The notes: generated from the sequence alone by a model not told the origin. A stretch of 60,547 bases of DNA from Candidatus Tayloriibacteriota bacterium (GCA_016215405.1 JACRJQ010000002.1:125597-186143), one strand, 5' to 3'; positions 19,272 to 47,858 are shown, numbered from the stretch's first letter. Numbers and translations are program-made.

Positions 19272-21524
19272 TTATTTCGCTACCGCGAGAGCCTCGTTGA
19301 AGGCGATGGAAAGGAGCTTAGAGAAGCCTTCCCTGCCCATGGTGACGCCGTAGAGGACGCCGGCTCGCGACATCGTCTCGCGATTGTGGGTGATGACGAT
19401 AAGCTGGGAATGCTTAGAGAGGCTCTCGACCATGTCCCCGTACTTCTTCGAATTCGCTTCGTCGAGGGCTGCGTCGGTCTCGTCGAGGATGATGAAAGGC
19501 GGCGGGTTCACCTGAGAGATGGCGAAGAGGAGCGCGATCGAAGTGAGGGCCCTCTCGCCGCCGGAGAGCATCTCGAGACCCTTTATCTTCTTTCGCGGGA
19601 GATTGACGTGGATGTCTACCCCGACCTCGGTCTCTTCCTCTTCCTCCGCCATCGCTTCGAGGCCCATCTCTTCTATCTCTTCGGGCGAAGGACCCCTCTT
19701 TCTCTTCTTCTCTTTCACGACGGCCAGAGACGCCTCTCCTCCGCCGAACATAAGGGCGAAGAATTCCTTGAACTGCTTGTTTATCTTCGCTATGCCGTCG
19801 GAGAAGAGCGTATCGAGCTTCTCCGAGAGCTCTGCGATGAGCTCCGTGAGGGATGCCGCCGACTTTTCGAGGTCGACGAGCTCGCGCGCCAGGAATTCGT
19901 CCCGCTCGGACGTCTCATTGAACTCTTTCATTACGTCTCCCGCGGAAAGGCCTCCCGAATCCTCGAGCCTGACCTTTATCTTCTCTATGTGCTTTCGCCT
20001 CTCTTCTTGAAGGGACCTCTCCTCGGCCGCGTGCTCTGTCGTGTCCGACTCGTACAGATAGACGTCCCTGCCGATAAGGACCGCGCCCTCCTCGACCTCC
20101 CTTTTGAAATCAACCTTCTCGAGGCGCAGCTTCTCTTCCCGCACCGCCATGACGGAGAGCCTGCCACGGATCTCATTCTCCTCGGCCATTATCCGGAACA
20201 TCGATTTCTCGGCATCGCGAGAGCTATCCTTCTCCTTCTCTATGTCGCCCTGCAGGCTCGCATACGCTGAAGAGAGCTTGGAAAGCTCGGCTTCGGCATC
20301 CTTGGCCCCCTTATCCGCCTCTTCTTTGCGCTCCTTAAGGAGCCGTATCTCCTTTTCGAGCTCTCCCGCCCTGTCCTGAGCTTTGGTGTTCTTGTTCGAT
20401 TCCAAGAAGAGCTTGAGGGATTCTCGGATCTTCGCGAGGGCCGCCTTCACTCCGCCGAGGTCTTTCGCCCCCTCTATGTCGCCCAAAAGCTCTTCGATCC
20501 TTCCGACGAAGCCTTTGACCTTTGAGTATTCGACCGTCACAGCCTCGGTGTTAGCGGTCGCCCTTTCTCGGGCGAGCATCCTTTCGAGAGAGCCTATCTC
20601 GCCCTCGATCCTGCCTATCGTGCGCGTCACCTCGTCGCGCGATTCGCGCGCGGACTTGAGCTTCGCCTCGAGCGACATGAGCTCCGAGGATTTGGCGTCC
20701 TTATGCTTGGACGCCTCGAGGACTTTTTTCGCCTCCGAAAGCTCGTGCTCGAGCCGCGCGAGGTCTCTGCGCGGCCCTGCCGCCTCCTCCGCGAGCGCTT
20801 TTTCGGTCTCGGCCAGATAGAGCGATTCGCGCTTCAGATATTCCCGATAGACGCTCTTTAGCTCCTCTCTGAGGGCGATCGTCTTCTCGACTTTCTCGAC
20901 CTGCTTTTTGAGGAACTTGAGATGCGGAGCGATCTCCTTCCTCAAGGATTCGACCTTCTCCATGTTCTCGCGGGTCTTCTCGAGCTTCCTCTCGCTCTCC
21001 TCTCTCTTGTACTGGAATATCTTGAGGCCGAGCGCGTCCTCGAGCATCTCCCTCCTCTCCCTCGAATTCGAATTGAGTATCCTGTCTGCCTCGCCCTGAG
21101 AGATTATGTGGTGGCCGGAGGAGCCGATGTGGGCCCCCGCGAGAAGCTCGACGATGTCGCGCAGACGAACAGCCGACCCGTTTATGAAATATTCGGAGAG
21201 CGAATCCCTGTGGATCACGCGCTCTATGGCGACCTCGTCGAAATCTATGTTAAGGAGCCTCTTTCGGTTATCGAAGACGAGCTTTACCGCTGCGCGATTC
21301 GCGCGAGGCTGGGATTCGCCGCCATTGAAGATAAGGTCCTCGGTGCGTTTTCCGCGCATCGACTTTATCGACTGCTCTCCGAGGACGAAACGGAACGCCT
21401 CAGCGACGTTCGACTTGCCCGACCCGTTAGGGCCCACGACCGCCGTCACAGGCGCGTTGAATTCGAGATTTGCCTTTTTGGCGAAGGATTTGAAGCCGGA
21501 AAGCTCGAGGGATTTAAGATACAT
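19272..21524 (-). CDS. smc: Smc-family chromosome segregation ATPase, short form (750 aa)
   Basis: MYLKSLELSGFKSFA, Walker A GPNGSGKSN, Q-loop IISQG, LSGGE signature, PFIILDETDAALD, ITHN; coiled coil between the head halves. Confidence 0.9.
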   Translation of the reverse strand: MYLKSLELSGFKSFAKKANLEFNAPVTAVVGPNGSGKSNVAEAFRFVLGEQSIKSMRGKRTEDLIFNGGESQPRANRAAVKLVFDNRKRLLNIDFDEVAIERVIHRDSLSEYFINGSAVRLRDIVELLAGAHIGSSGHHIISQGEADRILNSNSRERREMLEDALGLKIFQYKREESERKLEKTRENMEKVESLRKEIAPHLKFLKKQVEKVEKTIALREELKSVYREYLKRESLYLAETEKALAEEAAGPRRDLARLEHELSEAKKVLEASKHKDAKSSELMSLEAKLKSARESRDEVTRTIGRIEGEIGSLERMLARERATANTEAVTVEYSKVKGFVGRIEELLGDIEGAKDLGGVKAALAKIRESLKLFLESNKNTKAQDRAGELEKEIRLLKERKEEADKGAKDAEAELSKLSSAYASLQGDIEKEKDSSRDAEKSMFRIMAEENEIRGRLSVMAVREEKLRLEKVDFKREVEEGAVLIGRDVYLYESDTTEHAAEERSLQEERRKHIEKIKVRLEDSGGLSAGDVMKEFNETSERDEFLARELVDLEKSAASLTELIAELSEKLDTLFSDGIAKINKQFKEFFALMFGGGEASLAVVKEKKRKRGPSPEEIEEMGLEAMAEEEEETEVGVDIHVNLPRKKIKGLEMLSGGERALTSIALLFAISQVNPPPFIILDETDAALDEANSKKYGDMVESLSKHSQLIVITHNRETMSRAGVLYGVTMGREGFSKLLSIAFNEALAVAK

Positions 21525-21596
21525 GGATATAAGGGATGTCGGAAAAGACCCTCTAAATATAGCATTTTAGGCCTTATTTCGAGAGTGAATAAACTC

Positions 21597-21626
21597 TTGA
21601 CTTTATAGTACAATATATGGTATAAT
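21597..21626 (+). promoter_or_regulatory. strong sigma70 promoter
   Basis: TTGACT-18 nt-TATAAT with TGG extended -10. Confidence 0.75.
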
Positions 21627-21729
21627 TATCAGGAATCGGGAAAGGCACGGGCTTCAGACATTAGGGCGCAAGCTTCCGGGATCTCCCCGAAAGACCAGAT
21701 GCTCCCTCACCCTGCAGCTCATCCTTCCC

Positions 21730-21897
21730 ATGAAAGTCATTCCGTTCATCCTAGCTTTCGTCATCACGCTCCTTGCCCAGATTTTCATCCCACGTCAGCA
21801 CTTGTTGAAAGTCTCGGCGACGCTCGCGGTCATGATCCTCTTGGTGGCCATCGGCATAGTCGCTGGGCGCCGCTATGGCTGGATCAAGTCCCGCTAA
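21730..21897 (+). CDS. 55-aa two-TM small membrane protein (not in ORF track)
   Basis: MKVIPFILAFVITLLAQIFIPRQHLLKVSATLAVMILLVAIGIVAGRRYGWIKSR; lies between a consensus promoter and a terminator. Confidence 0.7.
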   Translation: MKVIPFILAFVITLLAQIFIPRQHLLKVSATLAVMILLVAIGIVAGRRYGWIKSR

Positions 21898-21905
21898 AGA
21901 ACACT

Positions 21906-21940
21906 GGCCGGGATCGCGCTTCGCGCGATCCCGGCCCTTT
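21906..21940. terminator. intrinsic terminator between the small ORF and the first pilin gene
   Basis: GGCCGGGATCGCGC-TTC-GCGCGATCCCGGCC then CTTT. Confidence 0.8.
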
Positions 21941-21955
21941 GCTTTCTATCTTCCA

Positions 21956-22792
21956 TCAGCGCACAGACATCTCGCGACGCGACGCCCCAACGGCGTACAA
22001 AACCCCCACCTCCTCGGCGACGAGCGCCTTCGCGAAGAAATGGATCTCGTCCATCTGCCCGTCGAAAAAGACGTTTGGGCCAGGAAAGTACCCTGTCTCG
22101 TTCCTGTTAAAGGAGAATATTATCCTTCCGAAGCTCTGGGTCGATATATTCGTATCCTGTCCTTCGAGCCTTCCGTTGACATAGAGCGAGCGCTTGCCGT
22201 TCGCCGCGTCGTGGCTTACGGCGATGTGATACCACTTACCTGTCCCGAGGGCGGTGGTCGATGTGATATTCTGCCCCGAGCCGTTGAATATGAAATAGCC
22301 TACCGTGCCGTTGGAGTTGAGATAGATATTGTTGCTATTGCCGTTCCCTCCCGAGATAGGCGGATTGATGGGCGAGTTCGACACGAGGCCTGCGTTCGCG
22401 ATCGCGTCCGGCTTTATCCAGAACGAATACGAATAGCTCTGCGTCTGATCAGTGGGATTGGTCGTCCATACATAGCCGGTCGAACCGTCGAACGAGAGCG
22501 AACACCCGGTCGCTTTTATGCTATCGGCGGTCCACGACGCTCCGCCCACGATTGTTCCGAGATTCGTACCCGCGCGATTACCGGCAGAAGAGCCGGAACA
22601 TTCGTCTAATTCCCAAATGCCCATGGCGTAATCCCCTGCTGCCCTGCCTGCTTGGGCGGCGAACTGCTTTCCCGCAGCGATACGCGCCTTGTCCCGCGCG
22701 GAGTTGAGGGACGAAAGGACCACGCTCGAAAGGAGCGAGATTATGGATACGACCACGAGCAATTCTATGAGGGTGAAGGCTCTTTTATTCAT
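21956..22792 (-). CDS. pilin-like protein (class III signal) with LamG/ConA-like domain, #1
   Basis: MNKRA|FTLIELLVVVSII; WELDECSG...SLSFDGS...YSFWIK...WYHIAVS...LYVNG...DGQMDEIHFF. ORF-track extension upstream of 22792 is spurious. Confidence 0.9.
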   Translation of the reverse strand: MNKRAFTLIELLVVVSIISLLSSVVLSSLNSARDKARIAAGKQFAAQAGRAAGDYAMGIWELDECSGSSAGNRAGTNLGTIVGGASWTADSIKATGCSLSFDGSTGYVWTTNPTDQTQSYSYSFWIKPDAIANAGLVSNSPINPPISGGNGNSNNIYLNSNGTVGYFIFNGSGQNITSTTALGTGKWYHIAVSHDAANGKRSLYVNGRLEGQDTNISTQSFGRIIFSFNRNETGYFPGPNVFFDGQMDEIHFFAKALVAEEVGVLYAVGASRREMSVR

Positions 22793-22800
22793 TACAATAT

Positions 22801-23640
22801 CTATTCGAGGGCAACCCTCGAGCGATGAAGATCGCTCGCGTAGACGTCTCCGATCTCCGACGCGACGAGGGCTTTCGCGTAGACCCGCACATCCTCGATA
22901 TTTCCGCTGAAATAGTTGCCATCCGAACATGTGGAGCTTGGCTCCGCTCCGATACAGAGGGCATTATTCGATGAATACGTGATACTACCGCTCGGCGCCG
23001 CGTTAGCCGCGACTTCCTTACCGTCGAGGTAGAGCTTCATGACCTCGCCGTCATAGGTGACGAGCGCATGGTACCAGCGTCCCACGACGAGGGCGGACGC
23101 CGGATAGGATACCGAATGATATGAGCCGCTTATGTGGATAAGGCCGCACAGGGAATTCAGGGCGCAAGCGCTATTCTCGTTTATCGAGAGCTGGTAGCCG
23201 CCGGTCTGGGTCTTCGAGAGTATCTGCCTGCCTCCTGAGAGGCTCGCGGGCTTGAACCACGCGCTGTAGGTGATAGCCGAGGTCGGAGCGAGAGCCGCCG
23301 AATAAGGGACCTCGATATAATCGTTGGTGCCGTCGAAGAGCACCGACCCGCCGACGTTCCACGGGGTGTCTGCAGACCACGCCGGACTATTGACCAGCGT
23401 GCCGTTATTGCCGCTCCCCGACCTGTCGCGGGCGACAGTACCCGCTCCGTCGTCGAGATCCCACACGCCTACCGCATAATCACCGGCGACCCTGAACGAT
23501 TGCGCCGCGAACGACTTCGCGCCGCCGAGCCGGCCTTTATCCCGCGCGGAGTTGAGGGACGAAAGGACCACGCTCGAAAGGAGCGAGATTATGGATACGA
23601 CCACGAGCAATTCTATGAGGGTGAAACCTCCCTTCTTCAT
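22801..23640 (-). CDS. pilin-like protein with LamG/ConA-like domain, #2
   Basis: MKKGG|FTLIE; WDLDDG...DRSGSGNNGTL...ITYSAWFK...WYHALVTYDG...LYLDG...FSGNIEDVRVY. Confidence 0.92.
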   Translation of the reverse strand: MKKGGFTLIELLVVVSIISLLSSVVLSSLNSARDKGRLGGAKSFAAQSFRVAGDYAVGVWDLDDGAGTVARDRSGSGNNGTLVNSPAWSADTPWNVGGSVLFDGTNDYIEVPYSAALAPTSAITYSAWFKPASLSGGRQILSKTQTGGYQLSINENSACALNSLCGLIHISGSYHSVSYPASALVVGRWYHALVTYDGEVMKLYLDGKEVAANAAPSGSITYSSNNALCIGAEPSSTCSDGNYFSGNIEDVRVYAKALVASEIGDVYASDLHRSRVALE

Positions 23641-23660
23641 ATCTAATGAGTATATCAAAG

Positions 23661-23698
23661 GAAAAAGGCGGCGCGCAGAGAAGCGCGCCGCCTTTTTC
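23661..23698. terminator. intrinsic terminator after rnc
   Basis: GAAAAAGGCGGCGCGC-AGAGAA-GCGCGCCGCCTTTTTC. Confidence 0.8.
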
Positions 23699-23702
23699 CA
23701 AA

Positions 23703-24401
23703 CTAAGACGACCAACCTTTAAGCTCGAGAGCCCGCAAAGCGGCGTTCTGTTCGGCCTCCTGCTTCGACTTGCCCTCTCCTACCGCGATCTGGTCCTTTC
23801 CGATGAGGACTCCGACGGTGAAAGACTTGTCGTGATCGGGGCCCGATTCGCGCACGAGCTTGTATGAAGGAGTGATGCCCGACTTCTCTTGGGCCTTCTC
23901 CTGGAAAAGGGACTTCGCGTCCACCAGATTCCCCCTGGCTATCATCTTGTCCGCGAACACGAGGATGTTGCGCTCGATGAAGGTCTTGGCGGTCTCATAA
24001 TCCTGATCGAGATATATCGCTCCGACCACCGCTTCGAACGTGTTAGCGAGGATGTATTGTCGCGCGCGGCCCGTGTCCTTCGATTCGCCTTTGGACAGGA
24101 GAAGGAAGTCGTTCATAGAGAGGTTCGACGCTACCTCGGCGAGCGTAATCGCGTTCACGAGCGCAGACCGATAGGTGGTAAGCTCCCCTTCCGGCTTGTC
24201 GCCGTACTTCTTGTAGAGGAAGTCTGTGACGACGAGCTCAAGGACCGCGTCGCCGAGGAATTCCAGGCGCTCGTTGTGCTCAAGCCTCGTGTTCTTGTTC
24301 TCGTTTATATAGGAACGGTGGGTGAACGCCTGCTTGAGGAGCCCCTTGTCTTTAAAGGCGACGCTTGCCTTCTCTTCGAACCGGCTAAAATTGATATCCA
24401 T
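23703..24401 (-). CDS. rnc: ribonuclease III
   Basis: HNERLEFLGDAVL signature, LANTFEAVVGAIYLD, C-terminal dsRBD. Confidence 0.98.
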   Translation of the reverse strand: MDINFSRFEEKASVAFKDKGLLKQAFTHRSYINENKNTRLEHNERLEFLGDAVLELVVTDFLYKKYGDKPEGELTTYRSALVNAITLAEVASNLSMNDFLLLSKGESKDTGRARQYILANTFEAVVGAIYLDQDYETAKTFIERNILVFADKMIARGNLVDAKSLFQEKAQEKSGITPSYKLVRESGPDHDKSFTVGVLIGKDQIAVGEGKSKQEAEQNAALRALELKGWSS

Positions 24402-24527
24402 GCTGGGATAATGGGTTAATCCTTAACTTTCAATTATCAACCAATTATTAATTAGAAATCACGAATTAATAACTGAAAATTAATTGCGGTTGATATTACC
24501 TTTTAATGGGAATTCCGCAACCGAGCG

Positions 24528-25427
24528 CTATTTCTTCGGGATGAGCTTTATCGCCTTCGCCATGATCGGCATCATGTCGTCGTAGAAATTAAGCTCTCCT
24601 ATCTCGCCTGCCTTAAACCACTGCGCCTTGTCGAGCCCGCCGGTCTTTTTGAGGGTGAGAGGGCCGTAGGACGTCTCCGCGAGGAAATAGGTCACCTGCT
24701 TCCTGAGCTTTCCCTTTTCGGGATGGGTCGCCACGTATTCGTTCGCCGCGAGCTCTTTGAGGATCTTCACGTCGACGCCGATCTCCTCCTTTATCTTCCT
24801 TATGGTCCCAGCCTTCACGTCTTCGCCGTCTTCGAGGCCGCCCTTCGAGAGCGTCCAGCGGCCGAACACGTCATGCACCAAAGCGAGGTGTATCTCGCCT
24901 TCATGGCGGGAGAACACGACGGCTCCGCCGAGCTTTACGATCGGCATCTTGTCGAACGGCACGTTGAACTTGTCGTCTTTCTTCTTCGACACCGCGTCCT
25001 TTCCCGGCTCTCCGAGCTCCTTGTAGACGGAGCCCAGGACGCCGTTCACGAATTTGCCAGAATTCTCGCCGCCGAACGACTTTGCGAGCTCAATAGCCTC
25101 GTTGATGGCCACTTTCGCGGGCACTTCCTCCCTATCGGCGAACAAAAGCTCGTAGAGGCCGATCCTCAGCACGTTTCGATCGACGACGGAGATCTTGTCG
25201 AGCGGCCAATCAGGGGCCGCCTTGGTGATTATGGTGTCTATCTCCGGACGCTTCTTGACGACGCCAGCGCCGAGCTCTTCCATGAACTTGATATCGGAGT
25301 TTCCTGAGGCGAATTCGGACGCGTTGCGGCCTATGGCATCAGAGAGGATGCCGTCATTGTGGTCGCGGAAGTCCCACTCGAAGAGAGATTGCAGAACGAC
25401 CGAGCGAGCAAGGTGCCTATTTGCCAT
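24528..25427 (-). CDS. nusB: NusB antitermination factor fused to a C-terminal Nudix domain
   Basis: MANRHLARSVVLQSLFEWD...DRNVLRIGLYEL...INEAIELAK...FVNGVLG, followed by WTLSKGGLEDGEDVKAGTIRKIKEEIGV. Confidence 0.92.
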   Translation of the reverse strand: MANRHLARSVVLQSLFEWDFRDHNDGILSDAIGRNASEFASGNSDIKFMEELGAGVVKKRPEIDTIITKAAPDWPLDKISVVDRNVLRIGLYELLFADREEVPAKVAINEAIELAKSFGGENSGKFVNGVLGSVYKELGEPGKDAVSKKKDDKFNVPFDKMPIVKLGGAVVFSRHEGEIHLALVHDVFGRWTLSKGGLEDGEDVKAGTIRKIKEEIGVDVKILKELAANEYVATHPEKGKLRKQVTYFLAETSYGPLTLKKTGGLDKAQWFKAGEIGELNFYDDMMPIMAKAIKLIPKK

Positions 25428-25573
25428 ACAACGTGCTTATATCGTTAAATTGCCTTAGCGTTACGGTATCCATACTACAACTACGTTCGAAAAGCGCAAG
25501 TTCGCCGCCGTGCCGGCGCCTGAGGCTTGTTTGCCTGCACGATAGAAAAAAGCAGCCTCTCGGCTGCTTTTTT

Positions 25574-25798
25574 CTATCGTGCGGTCTGTGCCTCTTTCGC
25601 CTTCTTGGCCTTCTTCTGGGCCCTCTTATCGACGTCGATCGCTACGATGCCTTTATATTTGCCCGTTATCGCCGACGCGCGGTGGCGGAGGTGGACTGTC
25701 CCCGTCTTCGAGTCTACGGTCAAAGCAGGATTCTTGAGCGCGTGATGAGAGCGCCTGTTTCCTGTATGAGACCGCGTGGATCGCATTCGTACTACCAT
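25574..25798 (-). CDS. rpmF: 50S ribosomal protein L32 (cysteine-free form)
   Basis: RMRSTRSHTGNRRSHHAL...HLRHRA...GKYKG. Confidence 0.88.
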   Translation of the reverse strand: MVVRMRSTRSHTGNRRSHHALKNPALTVDSKTGTVHLRHRASAITGKYKGIVAIDVDKRAQKKAKKAKEAQTAR

Positions 25799-25843
25799 AG
25801 GCCATGTACTATAGCAGAAGCCGCAAAAAAGGCAAATCGAGGC

Positions 25844-26659
25844 TTACCTTCCCGCCAAGACCTCTCTGTTTCGGGCTTCTGCAAAGAGCCTTCCTACTTC
25901 AGAAGCGGTAAGTGTCTTCGCGTATACCCTCACTTCGTCGATAAGAGCGTTCGGACTATATGAACCGGCCGGAGACCGAGCGATGTTAAGGGCGCTCGAA
26001 TTGTTCCAACTGTTGCCGCTCGAAGCCGACGTAGAGACGAGCTTGCCGTCGATATAGAGATACCTGGTCCCTCCGCTTACGACTCCGACGAAATGCTTCC
26101 ACACGTTCGTGTCTCCTCCCTGCGCGATATAAGGCGCGTTCTGGGCATTGTACGCGATGAACATAAAGCCGTTGCCGTTGAATCCATAAGACGGAGCCGC
26201 ACCGTTAAGAAGACTATCCCCTTTATGCAAGAAAACCGCGCTCGCCGTGCTTCTCAGGTATATCCACATGGAGACGGTGAAGTTGTCGGCAAGGTCGAGA
26301 GAGGAGGAATCCGGCACGAGGACATAGCCTGCGCCGCTGACGTCGAGAGAGCAGCCTCGACCATACGGGGTATTAGCCGACCATGAATACGTGCCCGTAA
26401 GGGTGCCGATGTTCCCATTACCCGACCTGTCCGCCGCCACAGTGCCGGCGCACTCGTCGAAATCCCAAATCGCGGCCGCAGAGTCGCCCGCAGCGCGATG
26501 GACCCCCGAATCGAACTGCTTCCCTGCCGTCACCCTCGCCTTATCTCTCGCAGAGTTGAGAGACGAAAGGACCACGCTCGAGAGGAGCGAGATTATAGAG
26601 ATCACCACGAGAAGCTCTATGAGCGTGAAAGCCTGCCTGTAGTTCGAACGCTTGTTCAT
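25844..26659 (-). CDS. pilin-like protein with LamG/ConA-like domain, #3
   Basis: MNKRSNYRQA|FTLIE; WDFDECAG...FTVSMWIY...WKHFVGV...LYIDG...IDEVRVY; start overlaps the rnhB stop (ATGA). Confidence 0.92.
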   Translation of the reverse strand: MNKRSNYRQAFTLIELLVVISIISLLSSVVLSSLNSARDKARVTAGKQFDSGVHRAAGDSAAAIWDFDECAGTVAADRSGNGNIGTLTGTYSWSANTPYGRGCSLDVSGAGYVLVPDSSSLDLADNFTVSMWIYLRSTASAVFLHKGDSLLNGAAPSYGFNGNGFMFIAYNAQNAPYIAQGGDTNVWKHFVGVVSGGTRYLYIDGKLVSTSASSGNSWNNSSALNIARSPAGSYSPNALIDEVRVYAKTLTASEVGRLFAEARNREVLAGR

Positions 26660-27252
26660 AGGATCGCGGTTAGAAAGCTCTTTCGATGTAAGGGCGAGAC
26701 GCCCTGCTTTTTGATCGCGAGGTAATGAGCATTCGTGCCGTATCCTTTATGGGCTTCGAATCCGTAATCAGGATAGGATACGGCCTGCTCTTCCATATAC
26801 CTGTCCCGCGTGACCTTGGCCGCGATCGAAGCGGCGGATATCACAGGGACCTTCTCGTCGCCCTTTATTATGGTTTGCTGCGAGGCGAACTCTTTCGGCG
26901 CCCTAAGGGATCCGTCGAGGTATACGTCCGAAAGCTCCGGGTCGAGGCCCAAGGCGCCGAGCGCCTCTGACATGGCCTTCTCTATCGCCTTCGATATCCC
27001 TATGGCGTCTATCTCGAAAGCAGGTACGGACGCACAGGCGAAATCGAGCTTTCCTTGAGCCTTAAGCTCGGTGAGCTTAAGGAACCACGACTCTCTTTTT
27101 TTCTGCGAGAGCTTCTTGGAGTCCCGTATGCCCTCGAAAGACCTGAGATCGAATCCCTCAGGCACCACACAGACGCCGACAGTGACCGGACCGGCCACAG
27201 GCCCGCGACCGACCTCGTCTATCCCTACCGCGCACCTGGAGCTTATGGGCAT
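26656..27252 (-). CDS. rnhB: ribonuclease HII
   Basis: GIDEVGRGPVAGPV, DSKKL, DGS, KGDE, ISAASIAAKVTRD, HKGYGT, HRKSF; true start MPISS at 27252. Confidence 0.96.
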   Translation of the reverse strand: MPISSRCAVGIDEVGRGPVAGPVTVGVCVVPEGFDLRSFEGIRDSKKLSQKKRESWFLKLTELKAQGKLDFACASVPAFEIDAIGISKAIEKAMSEALGALGLDPELSDVYLDGSLRAPKEFASQQTIIKGDEKVPVISAASIAAKVTRDRYMEEQAVSYPDYGFEAHKGYGTNAHYLAIKKQGVSPLHRKSFLTAIL

Positions 27253-27767
27253 GGATTCTTCTTTAAAGGGATCAGAATCTCGAAATCGTCTCCGCCTCCT
27301 GTGGCGCCGTCGGGACCATAGGACATGATGCCGTCTTGGCGGCAATCGTTCGCGCCTCCTTCGCCTTCGTTCTCGTCTATACCGTACGGAGAGCCCCAGG
27401 GGTCTCTGTCCATATTCGTAAGACCGGTGACGACGCCGTTCGTATTGGTCTGCACCGCGTTTCTCACCGCTATCCAATTCGTATAACAGGCGCCGGACGT
27501 CCCCGATACGACGCCGGAACAAGAGCACCTGCTGCAGGTCGTATTGTTCGACCCGCTGCCTGCCGATATCTGGACCAATGTCTTATTCGACTCGCCTTGG
27601 GCCACCGCTACAGCCTTCGCGAATTGAAGCATCTCCTGACGCGCTTTCGATATCCTCGCCTTTGTCCTCGCCGCATTGAGCGAAGCGAGGACCACAGAGG
27701 AAAGGAGCGATATGATCGAGACGACCACGAGGAGCTCTATGAGGGTGAAGGCTCGCTTCTTATTCAT
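27243..27767 (-). CDS. pilin/pseudopilin-like protein, six-Cys GspG-like type, #4
   Basis: MNKKRA|FTLIE; CSRCSC, DPWGSPY, SYGPDG, C-terminal CP. Confidence 0.9.
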   Translation of the reverse strand: MNKKRAFTLIELLVVVSIISLLSSVVLASLNAARTKARISKARQEMLQFAKAVAVAQGESNKTLVQISAGSGSNNTTCSRCSCSGVVSGTSGACYTNWIAVRNAVQTNTNGVVTGLTNMDRDPWGSPYGIDENEGEGGANDCRQDGIMSYGPDGATGGGDDFEILIPLKKNPCP

Positions 27768-27804
27768 ATAGAAAGATTATAGCAAAGCGAACAAGGGCGG
27801 CCTT

Positions 27805-28335
27805 CTAGGGGCATTTTGGCGAAAGAGGGATGGTGATCGGACTCGCGACGTCGTCGCCTCCTCCAGACGCGCCGTCCGGACCGACGGAATATATGGTATC
27901 CGACGCCGTGCAATTCCCTCCCTCGCCCTGATTCTCGTCTACGAGATATGGGCTCCCCCACGGATCTCGAGACATGTTGGCGAGCCCTGTGACGATGCCG
28001 TTCGTATTCGATTGCACCCCGTTGAGCACCGCTACCCAGTTGGTGTAGCAGATCCCGGTGCTTCCTCGCAGGTCTCCCGAGCACGAGGCTACGCACAGGC
28101 TGCAGTTAGGTACCGTGCTCCCGCCGTTCGACGACATGGTCATGAGCAATTTCGATGACTCCCCTTGAGCTATAGCGACCGCCTTTATGAAGGCAGCCAT
28201 ATCCTGTTTCGCCTTTGCTATCCCTGCCTTCGTCCTCGCCGCGTTAAGGGACGCGAGAGCGATACTCGAGAGAAGCGAGATTATAGAGACCACCACCAAA
28301 AGCTCGATAAGGGTAAACCCCTTTCCCCGTTCCAT
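27805..28335 (-). CDS. pilin/pseudopilin-like protein, six-Cys GspG-like type, #5
   Basis: MERGKG|FTLIE; CSLCVASC, DPWGSPY, SVGPDG, PKCP. Confidence 0.9.
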   Translation of the reverse strand: MERGKGFTLIELLVVVSIISLLSSIALASLNAARTKAGIAKAKQDMAAFIKAVAIAQGESSKLLMTMSSNGGSTVPNCSLCVASCSGDLRGSTGICYTNWVAVLNGVQSNTNGIVTGLANMSRDPWGSPYLVDENQGEGGNCTASDTIYSVGPDGASGGGDDVASPITIPLSPKCP

Positions 28336-28371
28336 AGATGCGATTATAGCAAAACGAGCCTGAAAATAAGC

Positions 28372-28887
28372 CTACGGGCATTTCGCCGAAAGCGGGACCT
28401 CCTGCGTGATGTCGTCAGAATCTCCCCATATCCCGTTAGGGCCGACCGATCGCAAGCCATCCCTCGTAGCACACGCGCCGGCGCCACCCTCTCCCTGATT
28501 CTCATCGACAGCGTAAGGGCTTCCCCAAGGGTCGCGTGTAATATTGGTAATCCCTGCGAAGACCCCTCCGGTGTTCGCCTGAACCGTCGTAAGCACGTTT
28601 ACCCACGCTGAATAACAGGTCCCCGTGTCTCCCATGAGATTTGCTCCCGTCCGACAGACGCAGTCGCTGCAAGTCGACCCTGTGATGGACAAGAGCGTCC
28701 TGAAACCCTCGCCTTGAGCGATCGATATAGCCTTCGCGACCTGATACATATCCTGCCTGGCTCTAGACGTCCGGGCCTTCTCCCTCGCCGCATTGAGCGA
28801 AGCGAGGACCACAGAGGAAAGGAGCGATATGATCGAGACGACCACGAGGAGCTCTATCAGAGTGAATGCTTTACGGCGACCCTTCAT
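28372..28887 (-). CDS. pilin/pseudopilin-like protein, six-Cys GspG-like type, #6
   Basis: MKGRRKA|FTLIE; CSDCVC, DPWGSPY, SVGPNG, AKCP. Confidence 0.9.
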   Translation of the reverse strand: MKGRRKAFTLIELLVVVSIISLLSSVVLASLNAAREKARTSRARQDMYQVAKAISIAQGEGFRTLLSITGSTCSDCVCRTGANLMGDTGTCYSAWVNVLTTVQANTGGVFAGITNITRDPWGSPYAVDENQGEGGAGACATRDGLRSVGPNGIWGDSDDITQEVPLSAKCP

Positions 28888-28894
28888 TGAAATC

Positions 28895-29689
28895 TTATTT
28901 AAGCGATACAGTCTTAGTTGCCGGTGATTCGAGGGCGTAGATAGCCTCGATCTCAGAAGCGACGAGGCCCTTTTGGAAAGCGCGAACACTCGTCACCTTG
29001 CCTTGGAAATAATAGCCTCCCCCTTCGTTCTCGAGTCCTATCCAAACCGCACCCGAGCCGCCACCGAAAGAGGCGCTCCCAGCTTCTTTGCCGTCGAGGT
29101 ATATCTTGCCCGTGCCGCCCGAATAGACGTAGGCCATATGGTGCCATTTCCCGTCCCACGCGTTCGTGCCGACCGCGACAGCGGAGTTGTATCCTCCGTC
29201 TTGGACGCCGACGTTGAGGCCTCCACAGTTCTTACCTACGTAAAAATCGGTGCTCGCCCCGCCGAACAAGGCGCGATAGCAATCTCCCGCCCCGCCTTCG
29301 TATTTGTACCAGGCCATTATCGTGAAAGGATTCTGGTTCGATCGGCTCAGAGGAGTCGTCATATATTGCGTCGATCCGTTGAGGTTGATGGAATACCCCG
29401 TTCCCCACGGCGTGTCCGTAGACCAAGAGGGGCTCCCCACGAGCGTGCCTCCATTGCCGTTTCCCGACCTGTCCGCAACAGCCGTTCCCGAACCCTCAGA
29501 GAAATCCCAGAGGCCCAAAGCGAGCTCCCCCGCCACGCGATGGAGCCCTGCTTCAAAGGATCTCGCCGCGCCTATCCGCGCCTTTTCCCTCGCCGCGTTA
29601 AGCTGCGACAAGACCACGCTCGAAAGGAGCGATATGATCGAGACGACCACGAGGAGCTCTATGAGGGTGAATGCTCTTCTATCTTTCAT
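28895..29689 (-). CDS. pilin-like protein with LamG/ConA-like domain, #7
   Basis: MKDRRA|FTLIE; WDFSEGSG...FTIMAWYK...WHHMAYVY...IYLDG. Confidence 0.92.
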   Translation of the reverse strand: MKDRRAFTLIELLVVVSIISLLSSVVLSQLNAAREKARIGAARSFEAGLHRVAGELALGLWDFSEGSGTAVADRSGNGNGGTLVGSPSWSTDTPWGTGYSINLNGSTQYMTTPLSRSNQNPFTIMAWYKYEGGAGDCYRALFGGASTDFYVGKNCGGLNVGVQDGGYNSAVAVGTNAWDGKWHHMAYVYSGGTGKIYLDGKEAGSASFGGGSGAVWIGLENEGGGYYFQGKVTSVRAFQKGLVASEIEAIYALESPATKTVSLK

Positions 29690-30506
29690 AGGCGATGAGC
29701 TTTTGCGAGCCTTTCGTATAGAGCTCTTCTATCTTCGCTATCGAAAGGGCGTCTGAATATACGGAGACCTCGTCTATGAGGCCATTCCAAAGGAGGCCCG
29801 TGCTCCCCGAATAGTGCCTTCCGATGTAGAACTGATTTGTCGACAGAAGGGTCCATGTGATGTTCCCGGAATTGCTTATGAGCCTCCCGTCCTTGTACGC
29901 CATCACCTTGAGCACATTGCCCTGCCTTTGGACTACGCCGAATATCCATTTTCCATCCATATCCGACCCGAGATCGATATAGACCCCTTCGTTCTCCGTG
30001 ACCCCGACCCTCATTATCCCGAATTGGTTGGTATTATTCCTCATAGTCATGATCGCGGTATCGCTCGTGCCGACCGAATTCGAGAATACGGTCCCCCAAG
30101 TCGTCTGAGCGCTCCTCTTGAACCAAGCTGTGATGGTGAAATCGCCTGAGAAGGTGCCCGTAGGGATCGAACCGAGCAGATACGCGTTCGAGCCGTTGAA
30201 AGAGAGAGAAGAGCCCGTGCCAGAGACGGTATCGCTCGACCAAGCCGGCGATCCCTGGAAGGCGCCCGAGCTTCCATTCCTCGAAAGATCGCGAGCGCTC
30301 GTCCCCGAATTGTCGTCGAAATCCCATATGCCCCTCGCGTCTCCGCCGAGAGACCGATTGAACTGCGCCGAAAATCTCAACGCCGCTGCCTTCTGCGCTT
30401 TTGCTCGCGCGGAATTTATCGAGGCGAGCACGATAGACGACAAAAGCGATATGATCGATATCACGACGAGGAGCTCTATCAGTGTGAACGCGCGGCGAGG
30501 GACCAT
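29679..30506 (-). CDS. pilin-like protein with LamG/ConA-like domain, #8
   Basis: MVPRRA|FTLIE; WDFDDNSG...FTITAWFK...WNGLIDEVSVY. Confidence 0.92.
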   Translation of the reverse strand: MVPRRAFTLIELLVVISIISLLSSIVLASINSARAKAQKAAALRFSAQFNRSLGGDARGIWDFDDNSGTSARDLSRNGSSGAFQGSPAWSSDTVSGTGSSLSFNGSNAYLLGSIPTGTFSGDFTITAWFKRSAQTTWGTVFSNSVGTSDTAIMTMRNNTNQFGIMRVGVTENEGVYIDLGSDMDGKWIFGVVQRQGNVLKVMAYKDGRLISNSGNITWTLLSTNQFYIGRHYSGSTGLLWNGLIDEVSVYSDALSIAKIEELYTKGSQKLIAYER

Positions 30507-30649
30507 ATCCCTATTATGCCACAGGGGGCAGGCCTCCATATTTCACAATCCGCGGAGGCTTTTTAAGGCTAGATACTCTCTGCGATATGGCTTATACTGA
30601 TGCCATGTGATCGATCGCAAGGCTCTGCCCTTGGCGTTCCACACCCTCT

Positions 30650-33600
30650 ATGTCTCGCTTCATCCACCTTCACACCCATTCCCACTACTCGCTTTTGGCC
30701 GCTTTGCCGAAGATCGAGGACTTGGTGAAGGCGGCGAAAGCCGACGGCGCCCCCGCGCTCGCGCTTACCGATAACGGAAATCTCTACGGCGCGATCGAGT
30801 TCTATAAGGAGTGCAAGAAAGCGGGCATCAAGCCCATCATCGGCGTCGACTTCTACGTCGCGCCGAGGACGCGCAAAGACAAGCAGTCAGGCATCGATTC
30901 TCGCCGGACGCGGCTCATCCTCCTCGCAAAGGACTATCAGGGATACAAGAACCTCATACAGCTCGTGACGAAAAGCTACCTCGAGGGCTTCTATTACAAG
31001 CCGAGGATAGACCGCGAGCTCATCGAGGCGCATAAAGATGGCCTCATCGCGATAACTTCGGCATTCTCGGGCGACCTCACGCTCGCCCTCCAAGGAAACG
31101 ACATTTCCAAAGCCGCCGAGATCGCAGAGGGGTACAAGAAGATATTCGGGTCCGACTACTACCTCGAGATAACGCACCATCCCGATATCGACGACCACGA
31201 CACCCTCATGGAAAGGACGAAGGCGGTGGCAAAGAAGGCCGGAGTCCCTCTCGTCGCCGGAGGAAACGTCTACTATATAAAGCCTGAAGACAAACAGGCG
31301 CAGCAGACCTTGATGCTCGTGAACTCCTCGGGCGACGATCGCATATCCGACGACGATGTCGCGGACTTCTCATTCATCTCCGATGCTGCCGCTCAAGAGC
31401 GTTTCCGCGACACGCCCGAGGCCATCGCCAACGCGGAGAGGATCGCGAGCGAATGCAACCTGGAGATAGAGCTCGGAAAATGGGTCTTCCCGGACTTCAA
31501 GCTGCCCGCAGGCGAGACTCCCGACTCCGCCCTGCGCAAGGTCGTCTACGAGGGCTTTGCTCGAAGAAAGATCGACCAGACGCCCGAGATCGTCAAGCGC
31601 GTCGAATACGAGCTCGAGGTCATAAAGAACAAGGGATATTCTCCTTACTTCCTCATCGTGGCCGACCTCCTCGCCTACGCGCGATCGCACGGGATCCTCT
31701 CGAACATCAGAGGGTCGGTCTCGGGCTCCATGATCACCTACCTCTCCGGGATAACTAATATCGACCCCCTCGAATACGAGATACCCTTCGAGCGATTCCT
31801 CAATCCCGACAGGCCTTCGGCGCCGGATATCGATATGGATTACGCCGATAATCGCCGCGACGAGATGGTGGATTACGCGCGCTCGAAATACGGCATCGAG
31901 AAAGTAGCCCAGATCGGAACTTTCGGCACCATGGCCGCGCGCGGCTCCGTGCGCGACGTCACCCGCGCCCTGGGATACTCCGTCGAGACGGGCGACAGGC
32001 TCGCCAAGCTCATACCTATGGGCTCTCAGGGCTTTCCTATGACGATCGACAAGGCGCTCGAAGACGTGGCAGAGCTGCGCGAGCTCTATCAAAAGGACGC
32101 CGACACGAAGCGCATCATCAACCTCGCGAAGAAGATCGAAGGGTGTGCCCGCCACATCTCCGTCCATGCCGCAGGCGTCGTCATAGCGCCTACCGAGCTC
32201 ACCGATTTCACCGCGCTCCAGTACGACACCAAGGGTGAGCAGAAAATCATCTCGCAATACGATATGTACTCCATCGAGGAGGCTGGCCTTCTCAAATTCG
32301 ACTTCCTCGGCCTCAAGAACCTCTCGATCCTCGCCGATGTCATCGACCGAATCGAGAAGATCGAGGGAAAGAAGGTCGACCGCGAGAGCGTGCCGATAGA
32401 CGACAAGAAGACGTTCGAGATGCTCGCCCGAGGCGAGACCGAAGGCCTCTTCCAATTGAACGGCGACGGTATGACGAAATACCTCAAGGACCTCAAGCCT
32501 ACGACCATCCACGATATAAACGCGATGGTGGCTCTCTATCGCCCGGGCCCGATCCAGTTCATCCCTCTCTATATCGACCGAAAGCACGGCCGGTCGCCTA
32601 TCGAATACCCTGACCCAGCCCTCGAGCCGATCCTCAAAAAGACCTACGGCGTCCTCGTCTATCAGGATGACCTCCTCATGATCGCTCACAAGATCGCCGG
32701 CTATTCATGGGGAGAGCTCGACAAGTTCCGCAAGGCCGTGGGAAAGAAGATCCCCGAAGAGATGGCCGCGCAGAAGGAGAAGTTCGTGAAAGGCTGCGTC
32801 GAGCACAGCAAATGGGCTCCGAAAAAGGCGAACGAGCTCTGGAAATGGATCGAGCCTTTCGCCGCGTACGGCTTTAACAAGGCCCACTCCGTCTCTTACG
32901 GCCGAGTCGCCTATGAGACCGCGTACTTCAAGGCGAACTACCCCGCGATATACATGTCGGCGGTCCTTACCGCAGATTCGGGCGACGTCGAGAGGATCGG
33001 AGAGTCGATCGCCGAATGCAAACGCATGAACATCCCCGTCCTGCCTCCGTCCGTAAACGAAAGCTTCACGGCGTTCTCCGTCGTGCGAAAGGATGGCGAG
33101 CCCGACAGGATACGCTTCGGACTGACGACGATCAAGAACTTCGGCGAAGGGATCGCCCGCGCCATAATCCACGAGCGAAAAGCGAACGGAAGGTATAAGT
33201 CCCTTTCGGATTTCCTCTCGCGCATTCACGACAGGAACCTCAACAAGAAATCGCTCGAATCCCTCATAAAGGCGGGCGCCCTCGACGAATTCGCAGACCG
33301 CGCGGCCATGTACGGGAATATCGACAGGCTGCTCGAATACAACAAAGAGAAGGCAAAAACAGGCGGAGCTCAAGACTCCCTCTTCGGAGGCATGGGAGCG
33401 GGACACGATGATATCCGGCTCGATACGGTCGCGCCTATCACCAAGGCAGAGATGCTCCTATGGGAAAAGGAGCTCCTCGGCCTCTATATCTCAGGACACC
33501 CTTTGGATAAATACAAATCCGTTCTCGAGAAGCGCCCGGTACAGATTTCGACCGTCAAAGCGAAGGCGCTCAAGGAATTCGAAGAGACTCAAAAGGTCAA

Positions 33601-33850
33601 AGAGGATATGGTCGTCCTCGGCGGCATCATAGAAGAGGTGCGCGTCATCATGACGAAGAAGAACGAGCAGATGGCGTTCGTGCGCATGGCGGACCTTACC
33701 GGATCGATCGAAGCCGTCGTCTTCCCGAGGACGTACTCGAGGTTCAAGTCGATCATCGTACCGGAGAAATGCGTTGCCCTCAAGGCGAAGGTCTCTGAGC
33801 GTAACGGCGAGATATCCCTGGTAGCGGACAACCTCATGGCCCTCCAGTAG
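30650..33850 (+). CDS. dnaE: DNA polymerase III alpha subunit
   Basis: PHP domain HLHTHSHYS/ALTDNGNLYG, RGSVSGS, PDIDMD, KFDFLGL, YGFNKAHS, C-terminal OB fold. Confidence 0.98.
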   Translation: MSRFIHLHTHSHYSLLAALPKIEDLVKAAKADGAPALALTDNGNLYGAIEFYKECKKAGIKPIIGVDFYVAPRTRKDKQSGIDSRRTRLILLAKDYQGYKNLIQLVTKSYLEGFYYKPRIDRELIEAHKDGLIAITSAFSGDLTLALQGNDISKAAEIAEGYKKIFGSDYYLEITHHPDIDDHDTLMERTKAVAKKAGVPLVAGGNVYYIKPEDKQAQQTLMLVNSSGDDRISDDDVADFSFISDAAAQERFRDTPEAIANAERIASECNLEIELGKWVFPDFKLPAGETPDSALRKVVYEGFARRKIDQTPEIVKRVEYELEVIKNKGYSPYFLIVADLLAYARSHGILSNIRGSVSGSMITYLSGITNIDPLEYEIPFERFLNPDRPSAPDIDMDYADNRRDEMVDYARSKYGIEKVAQIGTFGTMAARGSVRDVTRALGYSVETGDRLAKLIPMGSQGFPMTIDKALEDVAELRELYQKDADTKRIINLAKKIEGCARHISVHAAGVVIAPTELTDFTALQYDTKGEQKIISQYDMYSIEEAGLLKFDFLGLKNLSILADVIDRIEKIEGKKVDRESVPIDDKKTFEMLARGETEGLFQLNGDGMTKYLKDLKPTTIHDINAMVALYRPGPIQFIPLYIDRKHGRSPIEYPDPALEPILKKTYGVLVYQDDLLMIAHKIAGYSWGELDKFRKAVGKKIPEEMAAQKEKFVKGCVEHSKWAPKKANELWKWIEPFAAYGFNKAHSVSYGRVAYETAYFKANYPAIYMSAVLTADSGDVERIGESIAECKRMNIPVLPPSVNESFTAFSVVRKDGEPDRIRFGLTTIKNFGEGIARAIIHERKANGRYKSLSDFLSRIHDRNLNKKSLESLIKAGALDEFADRAAMYGNIDRLLEYNKEKAKTGGAQDSLFGGMGAGHDDIRLDTVAPITKAEMLLWEKELLGLYISGHPLDKYKSVLEKRPVQISTVKAKALKEFEETQKVKEDMVVLGGIIEEVRVIMTKKNEQMAFVRMADLTGSIEAVVFPRTYSRFKSIIVPEKCVALKAKVSERNGEISLVADNLMALQ

Positions 33851-36152: not shown

Positions 36153-36596
36153 ATGCGAAACAAAGGATTCACCCTCATAGAGCTCCTCGTGGTCATATCC
36201 ATAATCGCCCTGCTTTCGTCGGTGGCGCTCTCCTCTCTCAATGCGGCGAGGGCGAAGGGCAGATATGCGACCATAATAAGGCAGATGAAGGAGATCCAGA
36301 CCGCCTCGCACGGGTATTACACGGACACGGGTTCGCACGCCGCCGACACGGGTCCCGGAGGCGCGCCTGCGTTCGTCCCTGCCTACCTGAGGTCCTGGCC
36401 CACGCCTCCGTGCGGCGCGGGCTGGACGTACGATTGGGATAACTGGACGTCGAGTAACGGCTTCGTAGGAGTGCATCTCCATAACACGACCTTGGGAGCG
36501 CAGTATAAGCTTTGCACCGACACTACCTCCGCATGTTCGGCGTCGAGCGTGCAGGACATACTCACCGTGGCCCAGAGGTCGATCACCTGCCAATAG
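36153..36596 (+). CDS. pilin-like protein, short four-Cys type, #9
   Basis: MRNKG|FTLIE; YLRSWPTPPCG; starts 3 nt after the thrS stop. Confidence 0.9.
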   Translation: MRNKGFTLIELLVVISIIALLSSVALSSLNAARAKGRYATIIRQMKEIQTASHGYYTDTGSHAADTGPGGAPAFVPAYLRSWPTPPCGAGWTYDWDNWTSSNGFVGVHLHNTTLGAQYKLCTDTTSACSASSVQDILTVAQRSITCQ

Positions 36597-47063: not shown

Positions 47064-47858
47064 CTAGTAGCCGTTCGCCAGCTTTTCGAACCTCGGCTTC
47101 TCCTGAGCGTAGATCTCCTCGATATCGCTCGCGACGAGCGTCTTGCCGAATATATGGACGCTGTCCATCCGGCCTTGCCACCTCTCGCCGTCCCCGGCGC
47201 TATGGGCCCCGATGCGCAGAAAATCCCAATCCATGGCGTCCGCGCAGACTCCGCCGGTGCCCACCTGGACGCCGTTTAGATAGTACTTGAATCCGATCGA
47301 AGAATCGTAGGTCGCGGCGACATGGACCCACTGATTCGAAGGGAAGGAGTTAGACGCGGTCGACCCGCACGGCCAGAAGCCCAAGGAGTTGTTGGGATAG
47401 ATATAGAGCGCGTCGTCGGAGGCGACGTTCGTCTGGACGATCGCCCTATAGCCGCTGTTTGCCTTCGTGTCATAGACCCACGCGCTCATAGTCCACGCCG
47501 ACTGGTCGCGCGCCGTATACGATGTGTCCACGAAATCGTCCACTCCGTCGAAGAGCGCGGCGCAGCCGGACCCGAACGGGACGGCCGCAGACCACATAGA
47601 CGCATTCGAAAGCGTTCCCGTATAGCCGTTATTCGACCTGTCTGCGACCGAAGTCCCGGCACATTCGTCGAAATCCCAATACGCTATCGCGAGCTCGCCT
47701 GCGACCCTGTCGGCCTGCGCTGCGAAAGACCTCGCCGATCCCTGACGCGCCTTGTCGCGCGCCGAATTGAGGCTCGCGAGGACTATCGACGACAAAAGAG
47801 AGATTATCGATACGACGACGAGGAGCTCTATGAGGGTGAAAGCGCTTTTTCTCTTCAT
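47064..47858 (-). CDS. pilin-like protein with LamG/ConA-like domain, #10
   Basis: MKRKSA|FTLIE; WDFDECAG...WTMSAWVY...WVHVAATYD...YYLNG...WQGRMDSVHIF. Confidence 0.92.
   Translation of the reverse strand: MKRKSAFTLIELLVVVSIISLLSSIVLASLNSARDKARQGSARSFAAQADRVAGELAIAYWDFDECAGTSVADRSNNGYTGTLSNASMWSAAVPFGSGCAALFDGVDDFVDTSYTARDQSAWTMSAWVYDTKANSGYRAIVQTNVASDDALYIYPNNSLGFWPCGSTASNSFPSNQWVHVAATYDSSIGFKYYLNGVQVGTGGVCADAMDWDFLRIGAHSAGDGERWQGRMDSVHIFGKTLVASDIEEIYAQEKPRFEKLANGY

Follow-up and report, generated by a model that had tools for sequence, protein, structure and literature searches.

The 60,547 nucleotide (nt) stretch of DNA analyzed here (the window) corresponds to C6:125597-186143 of genome G000, from a Candidatus Tayloriibacteriota bacterium, and contains a cluster of eight complete prepilin-like genes. 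Several of these genes share long tracts of identical DNA in the segment encoding the N-terminal stem of the pilin, and the heads encoded downstream are deeply diverged. Judged from sequence comparison, this pattern is very likely the product of domain-limited concerted evolution by homology-dependent, short-tract gene conversion, and not of programmed head swapping. [quoted passage not shown]

Exact identity within the pilin stems

A prepilin motif could be read in the sequence: a short basic leader, glycine or alanine at position -1, phenylalanine at +1, glutamate at +5 and a hydrophobic helix of ~20 residues. Thirty-one prepilin-like N-termini were found in the genome; 24 carry FTLIELLVV(V/I)SIISLLSS, and ten of these 24 lie in the window. 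All ten window pilins matched N_methyl (PF07963) at 28-35 bits (cut-off 21.2 bits). Over the first ~30 mature codons, nearly the same residues are encoded in all 24 family members. The eight clustered genes are all on the minus strand, each with its own start, and fall into two head classes, LamG (#1, #2, #3, #7 and #8; Laminin_G_3 E = 1e-17 to 1e-30) and small Cys-rich heads with weak T2SSG/pilin similarity (#4-#6).

Four exact matches had been reported in the first-pass annotation, and all four were confirmed as exact and maximal, none extending by even one base on either side. The longest (86 nt) joins 22692-22777, i.e. mature codons 1-29 of pilin #1 (21956-22792), to 23540-23625 in pilin #2 (22801-23640). 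A 75-nt block is shared by pilins #4 (27243-27767; block at 27666-27740) and #6 (28372-28887; block at 28783-28857), skipping the gene for pilin #5 that lies between them. The third block (50 nt) connects the two head classes, since it is found in the Cys-type pilin #4 (27700-27749) and in the LamG-type pilin #7 (28895-29689; block at 29622-29671). The fourth is a 21-nt match between #7 (29612-29632) and #1 (22718-22738). All blocks sit within the first ~30 mature codons of the eight same-strand genes.

A conservative null distribution was obtained by replacing every codon with one drawn from those that the family uses for the given residue at the given position, in 2000 simulations of the 276 pairs formed by the 24 FTLIELLVV pilins. 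Under this null, the 95th percentile of the longest match was 47 nt and its largest value 60 nt, and 75 nt was reached in none of the 2000 simulations. The longest observed matches were 92 nt (C8_99528/C8_100390, outside the window), 86, 75, 50 and 50 nt, and a match of at least 40 nt was present in nine pairs, compared with 0.27 expected. In an analytic test of how probable full codon identity is where the residues agree, the 86-nt block gave P = 10^-8.25 per pair (10^-5.8 after multiplication by 276) and the 75-nt block P = 10^-7.05 (10^-4.6 after the same correction). The 50-nt block (10^-3.9 per pair, 0.037 corrected) is borderline when taken alone, and forms part of a clear excess of long matches. 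The 21-nt block had been offered as additional evidence, which it does not provide: its probability is 10^-1.9, several such pairs are expected, and it is carried by four paralogues including #2 and C5_43748. It is therefore ordinary and uninformative.

An explanation without recombination would invoke purifying selection on the protein combined with preferred codons, or else an mRNA or DNA sequence that is under selection as such (for translation start, membrane targeting or a binding site). In its favor, the stem protein is almost invariant, nucleotide identity across the family is already 0.7-0.95 per codon, and the median proportion of synonymous differences (pS) over all 276 pairs is lower for stems (0.59) than for heads (0.71). 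However, a typical pair of paralogues still shows 20-35 differences over the 96 stem positions (median longest in-register match, 14 nt), orthologous stems in sister species lack conservation at synonymous sites, and only certain pairs are nearly identical, in a way that depends on their proximity. Because the per-pair probabilities are about 1e-8 and 1e-7 and 75 nt is never attained by codon-pool resampling, the 86- and 75-nt blocks do not come from residue conservation and codon preference. Selection or codon bias alone was ruled out on the basis of these two tests, and recombination-free explanations as a whole are regarded as extremely improbable.

Each tract is internal to its gene, does not exceed ~90 nt and runs from the F+1 codon to near codon 30. 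Third-position identity in 15-codon windows was 0.87-1.0 over mature codons 1-30 and dropped at once to 0.2-0.5 from codon 31; for #1/#2 the values were 0.93 in codons 1-30 and <=0.40 afterwards. On the other side, the 60 nt upstream (leader peptide, -1 codon, start and promoter region) showed an identity of 0.20-0.35 between partners, i.e. they are unrelated. The limits of the tracts coincide with a family-wide island of homology, in which the high mean DNA likeness per codon persists to about codon 32 and is ~0.4 after it and 0.34 upstream.

Separate histories of stems and heads

Comparison of synonymous divergence between stem and head, a check proposed in the first-pass annotation, was carried out. 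Stem pS was 0.04-0.16 in four neighbor pairs, in which head pS was ~0.70, and head pS over all 276 pairs was ~0.70, which is saturated. Between the heads of block-sharing pairs, amino acid identity was 33-52% and pS 0.70-0.75. The claims that the long blocks cover synonymous positions and that the downstream heads are diverged thus both hold, and the result is not that of a simple recent duplication. When identical residues alone were counted, the codon was also identical at 28/31 stem and 30/73 head positions in #1/#2, and at 27/32 and 25/63 positions in #4/#6; the family background is 0.42. The contrast in age between stem and head is therefore independent of alignment quality.

The heads of #4 and #7 have no significant BLASTP similarity despite the 50 nt shared by their stems, which agrees with the earlier proposal that the constant segment was homogenized recently and across head classes. 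The #7 stem itself looks mosaic: in a dot alignment its 5' part resembles #4/#6 and its 3' part resembles C8_99528/C8_100390, with a max-chi2 breakpoint between stem nt 38 and 53 (p = 0.03, parents picked post hoc). A stem variant with valine at position 10 (Val10) is carried by 7/10 window pilins, of both head classes, versus 1/14 elsewhere in the family (Fisher p = 0.002), and this derived residue has thus spread, inside the window, to pilins of either head class.

The housekeeping backbone in which the cluster lies is common to 21 genomes of the genus (RNase III 78-91% identical). In the head tree, #2 was sister to G004_L026 (99/94), #8 to genes of G004 and G014 (100/100), and #3 to G018_L033_263 (100/100). 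The #6 head is 68% identical to its orthologues in G009/G021 and 52% to #4, whose own head is closest to #5 (63%). Since several heads are nearer to orthologues in other species than to paralogues at home, the head splits predate speciation. The stems behave differently, with 22-33/96 nt differing between orthologues versus 2-16/96 between neighboring paralogues; the #3 stem, for example, differs from that of its head orthologue at 22/96 nt. Within the Cys-type trio, 7 nt differ between the stems of #4 and #6, 26 between #4 and #5, and 28 between #5 and #6, so that the heads unite #4 and #5 and the stems unite #4 and #6.

The stem tree clusters by genome (17 label changes versus 31.5 in shuffles, with 0/200 as low), and starred in it are #1+#2, #4+#6, the C8 pair and two G004 pairs. 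Stem data rejected the clade of #2 and G004_L026 (approximately unbiased (AU) test, p = 0.012), the same pair that is supported by the head tree. Discordance between stem and head phylogenies, a point raised in the first-pass annotation, is thus seen for #2/G004_L026 and for the trio #4-#6, whereas for #1+#2 a sister relationship was not rejected by the head data.

Long matches are concentrated among neighbors. A match of at least 40 nt was found in 7/19 pairs located <3 kb apart versus 2/257 others (Fisher p = 7e-8), and when the genus was pooled the long-match fraction was 23% for neighbor pairs, 0.9% for distant pairs of the same genome and 0/1277 for pairs from different genomes. Over all same-contig pairs the correlation with distance was weak (Spearman 0.20, p = 0.07), the proximity effect being confined to the long-match tail. 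The pattern recurs in MAGs obtained independently, G004 containing a 50-nt block as well as a pair with 8 differences across head classes, and G018 a 42-nt block. In a contig sample of mixed phyla that did not include the window's genus, 1/76 within-locus pilin pairs (Planctomycetaceae) shared an exact stretch of at least 36 nt in the stem; homogenization of the stem is therefore not general to pilin clusters.

Recurrence also bears on the suggestion that the identical blocks are an artefact of assembly or polishing, produced by reads of paralogues correcting one another or by collapsed strain mixtures. The genome is indeed a MAG of 8 contigs. Against an artefact, the blocks, at 50-92 nt, do not attain the length of usual reads or of the largest assembly k-mers, and are therefore anchored by unique flanks. 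Their boundaries fall at a biological landmark, the F+1 codon, and at the homology island; all genes are in frame, contig ends do not lie in stems, and the same pattern is present in the independently assembled G004 and G018. An artefact is unlikely, and only slight weight was given to it.

Several observations weigh against gene conversion. Most neighbor pairs are not homogenized (median 24 versus 26 differences), which indicates that conversion events are sporadic. The pairwise homoplasy index (PHI) within the 96-nt stem was significant at w = 5 (p = 0.0008) and not at w = 10 (0.16) or w = 15 (0.41), and is confounded by multi-base switches between serine codons. Part of the grouping of stems by genome could reflect codon habits peculiar to each genome. 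The evidence for conversion comes from assembled sequences, and among 5.8 billion proteins no homologue was closer to #2 than one with 63% identity. Finally, AU tests on head data leave #1+#2 (p = 0.144) and C8_99528+C8_100390 (p = 0.47) as possible sisters, so for these two pairs the argument rests on depth of divergence and not on topology.

The last result, and the fact that the partners are mostly adjacent tandem genes, would also be consistent with whole genes having simply been duplicated in tandem in the recent past, the heads then diverging very fast as a result of diversifying selection. However, synonymous sites in the heads are saturated (pS 0.70-0.75), beyond what positive selection on residues would bring about; the heads of #2 and #6 resemble orthologues from other species more than they do the heads of their stem partners; those of #4 and #7 have unrelated folds; and the DNA upstream is unrelated. 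Recent whole-gene duplication was rejected for #1/#2, #4/#6 and #4/#7 on the grounds of head pS, orthology and unrelated flanks, and in general it is given hardly any credence.

Proposed mechanism and comparison with known systems

The ~30 codons shared by the pilins, which encode the transmembrane and filament-core part of the alpha1 helix, form an island of ~90 nt that is 70-95% identical between genes and is surrounded by unrelated DNA. Homology-dependent, non-reciprocal recombination would occasionally copy this island from gene to gene, mostly between genes <3 kb apart. Likely routes would be RecA-mediated gene conversion in the course of repair, or template switching while DNA is replicated. 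RecA is encoded at C5:87546-88325 (455.7 bits), and MutS domain V (PF00488) was not found in this genome of estimated 100% completeness; a missing MutS may ease recombination between stems that are 75-90% identical. The tract would be confined to the island, as homology runs out at the leader and again near codon 30. The polymerization stem would thus evolve in concert, and heads, leaders and promoters would keep their separate, ancient histories. A possible benefit is that all heads are kept compatible with a single PilB/PilC/PilD machine.

The first-pass annotation had seen in the stem a recombination hub that reassorts heads and promoters. In such programmed or semi-programmed variation, crossovers in the stem would join heads to other promoters and leaders, or would delete or duplicate heads, and the outcome would be head switching at the population level. 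The eight stems are direct repeats within 8 kb, between which crossovers would yield chimeras, deletions and duplications, and the stem is common to both head classes. Also in line with a hub, the backbone contains anywhere from 0 to 8 pilin genes depending on the species of the genus, the #8 orthologue occupies another slot in G004/G014, and heads are common to pilins and to secreted proteins with several LamG domains. Nevertheless, every identity tract is internal, and none runs into a leader, promoter or head. Because the tracts are internal patches with unrelated leaders and upstream DNA, they bear the signature of non-crossover conversion. Moreover, crossovers between slots would delete rnc, nusB, rpmF or rnhB.

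Dedicated elements were also looked for. No G4 motif was present on either strand at 20001-32000 of the window, and no serine recombinase (PF00239) was matched in the genome. A single tyrosine recombinase (PF00589) was matched genome-wide, on contig C5, and none beside the locus; enzymes of the Piv/IS110 type were outside this search. Inverted repeats found at 20000-33000 have no relation to the stems. Silent, 5'-truncated pilin cassettes are absent, all copies having a start codon, leader and stem. The remark in the first-pass annotation that no site-specific recombinase or inverted sites were visible therefore stands, and both site-specific recombination (within the limits of the enzyme search) and a G4-dependent mechanism were ruled out. 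Reassortment of heads through a stem hub is accordingly considered improbable, and gene conversion without crossover is preferred.

The likeness to shufflons and to pilE/pilS that had been suggested was not upheld. In the R64 shufflon (Rci) and in Moraxella Piv inversion, a dedicated site-specific recombinase acts together with inverted sites, and a constant pilin N-terminus is combined with alternative C-terminal parts. The present locus resembles these systems in that different C-terminal parts can go with a single constant N-terminus. Unlike them, it has direct repeats and a stem in every gene, and neither recombinase nor inverted sites were found. In Neisseria, silent 5'-truncated pilS copies donate variable head sequence to one expressed gene, pilE, with the help of a G4 element (PMC4023411, PMC2187963). 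Non-reciprocal transfer of the RecA type between pilin copies of one genome is a common feature. The logic is opposite, since here all copies are complete, the constant stem is copied and the heads are untouched, and there is no G4 motif. As the defining features were tested and found to be absent (Piv/IS110-type enzymes excepted), this is not a pilE/pilS, shufflon or invertase system.

Concerted evolution of bacterial paralogues by gene conversion has been described for tufA/tufB and for the Alteromonadales flagellin filament genes, 'fla' (PMC6053082). As in these cases, paralogues are more similar than orthologues, also at synonymous sites, subunits of assemblies or filaments are favored, and ordinary homologous recombination is involved. 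They differ from the pilins in that here only a domain-coding island of ~90 nt is converted, the remainder being saturated or non-homologous, and that about two dozen members take part in sporadic events, mostly between neighbors. The system thus works like classical concerted evolution, but affects no more than a single domain-coding island within a large pilin family.

The best functional parallel is found in Haloferax, whose six pilins PilA1-6 have different outer parts and a common hydrophobic H-domain that is required for assembly, each of them being able to build a pilus (PMC4371748). There too, differing heads are carried on one hydrophobic stem, but the organism is an archaeon with six genes and the heads are not LamG. 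No nucleotide homogenization or gene conversion of Haloferax pilins was found described in that review (PMC4371748). Among CPR bacteria, the Saccharibacteria strain TM7x has 12 pilins at four loci, with diverged, weakly conserved N-termini, and lectin-like minor pilins with large accessory domains (PMC11623550). It is likewise a CPR bacterium whose type IV pilins have lectin-like domains implicated in host binding; in contrast to the present case, its N-termini are diverged and no stem homogenization was described (PMC11623550). No description of stem homogenization was found in the papers on CPR pili that were searched (PMC13278184, PMC11623550).

The homogenized stems indicate how the many pilins of a minimal CPR genome may stay compatible with one machine, ~24 near-identical stems being encoded in 836 kb: the stem would evolve in concert, and the lectin-like heads, which probably bind host surfaces, would diverge freely. 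Two cautions follow for the annotation of such loci. Trees and orthology calls that include pilin N-termini will mislead, and exact repeats as short as these may be taken wrongly for mobile or programmed elements.

Pilus machinery, head modules and further features of the locus

The N-terminal alpha1 helix of type IV pilins serves as a membrane anchor before assembly and forms the filament core afterwards. In an AlphaFold2 model of pilin #2 (pLDDT 92.6), a single N-terminal helix of 48 residues (query residues 9-56) is followed by a jelly-roll beta-sandwich and a C-terminal helix. The sole pilin modelled is thus predicted to have the 'lollipop' fold, with a long alpha1 helix and a globular head, and the converted patch corresponds in the model to the N-terminal half of alpha1. 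A Foldseek search with this model returned generic lectin-like jelly-roll folds only, at 12-18% identity. The best PDB folds for the LamG head of #2 were the jelly-roll subdomain of the receptor-binding domains of clostridial neurotoxins and the carbohydrate-binding domain of an arabinanase. Pfam Toxin_R_bind_N was matched below the cut-off, and no toxin domains are present. The predicted likeness of this head to carbohydrate or receptor binders is one of fold class only.

A single cluster of pilus machinery genes was found, on contig C4, which encodes PilD, PilC, a PilT-like ATPase, PilB and PilM. The prepilin peptidase PilD (Peptidase_A24, C4:90471-90791) is adjoined by T2SSF, two T2SSE ATPases and PilM. 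Beside pilC/pilD lies a small pilin gene (C4:92014) with the stem residues VVIAIIGILSS, which differs from all other stems at 27-39/99 nt. Its product is probably the major pilin. Since the stem differs at the residue level and by 27-39/99 nt, it lies outside the homogenized set.

Pilins in the three intergenic slots of the backbone number from 0 (e.g. in the closest relative, G003) to 8 in G000, and the orthologues of the #8 head in G004 and G014 sit in the SMC/RNase III slot. Three secreted proteins with three LamG domains each and a Sec-type signal are encoded outside the window (C6:9688-11775, C2:4528-6606 and C2:1985-4537). The LamG domains of C6:9688-11775 are sisters, at 100/100, of different pilin heads: domain 1 of C8_128397, domain 2 of #7 and domain 3 of #2/G004_L026. 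Domain 3 of a C2 protein groups with the pilin head C6_31005. Identity between a secreted LamG domain and its sister pilin head is 47-57%, compared with ~31% typical between pilin heads. Pilins and secreted multi-head proteins thus appear to have head modules in common. Over evolutionary time, heads have moved between genomic slots and protein architectures, and nothing ties these moves to the stem block.

A broader and rather doubtful possibility is a modular display system. In such a system, conversion would maintain a universal stem handle in about two dozen genes served by one machine, LamG heads would be exchanged among stems, slots and secreted proteins, and occasional crossovers in the stem would add or remove heads. 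Such crossovers would explain the presence of 0-8 pilins in the same backbone. If this were true and ongoing in populations, an episymbiont would have a recombinase-free way to vary its host-binding repertoire. The sister relationships of pilin heads and secreted domains point to modularity of heads.

The pilin cluster is flanked by SMC (19272-21524) and DnaE (30650-33850). Between them a minus-strand housekeeping backbone, which encodes RNase III, a NusB-Nudix fusion, L32 (rpmF) and RNase HII, is interrupted by the eight pilin genes. Pilin #1 has the leader MNKR-A, the stem and a LamG (ConA-like) head (N_methyl 28.3 bits, Laminin_G_3 E = 3.9e-23), its start being taken as the ATG nearest to the cleavage motif; pilin #2 has the leader MKKG-G. 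A strong terminator hairpin on the minus strand (23660-23699) separates RNase III from pilin #2. Pilin #3 (25844-26659), with a LamG head, lies between rpmF and RNase HII, and neither its stem nor that of the LamG pilin #8 (29679-30506) shows recent conversion. The Cys-rich head of pilin #4 is weakly T2SSG/GspG-like (N_methyl 32.9 bits, T2SSG under the cut-off), and its sequence matches in the PDB were type IV pilins and GspG (E = 3e-5 to 3e-3). Pilin #5 (27805-28335), also with a Cys-rich head, has an intact stem that has diverged from those of its neighbors.

The end of the pilin #8 gene (stop region) overlaps the start of #7 by 11 nt (29679-29689), and the gaps among genes #4-#7 are only 7-37 nt. 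On the basis of this overlap and these gaps, the five genes #4-#8 may form one transcription unit despite their differing stems. Elements resembling a -10 box (TGnTATAAT- or TATACT-like) are located ~7-12 nt before the ATG of several pilins, e.g. at ~27775-27785 (#4) and 23645-23660 (#2), and a consensus scan gave no match to a -35 element for them. The short distance to the ATG and the lack of a -35 match suggest that pilin transcripts may be leaderless or have very short leaders.

Alanine replaces the usual glycine at -1 in 6/8 cluster pilins (codons at 22778-22780, 26630-26632, 27750-27752, 28867-28869, 29672-29674 and 30489-30491) and in 11/24 family members genome-wide. The -1 codon, which encodes alanine in #1 and glycine in #2, is just outside the conversion tracts. 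Two further pilins of the window lie outside the cluster. Pilin #9 (47064-47858, minus strand) has a LamG head and the Val10 stem variant of the cluster. Pilin #10 (36153-36596), with a small head, is the sole plus-strand pilin of the window, and its stem is the starred sister of C4_140611 on another contig.

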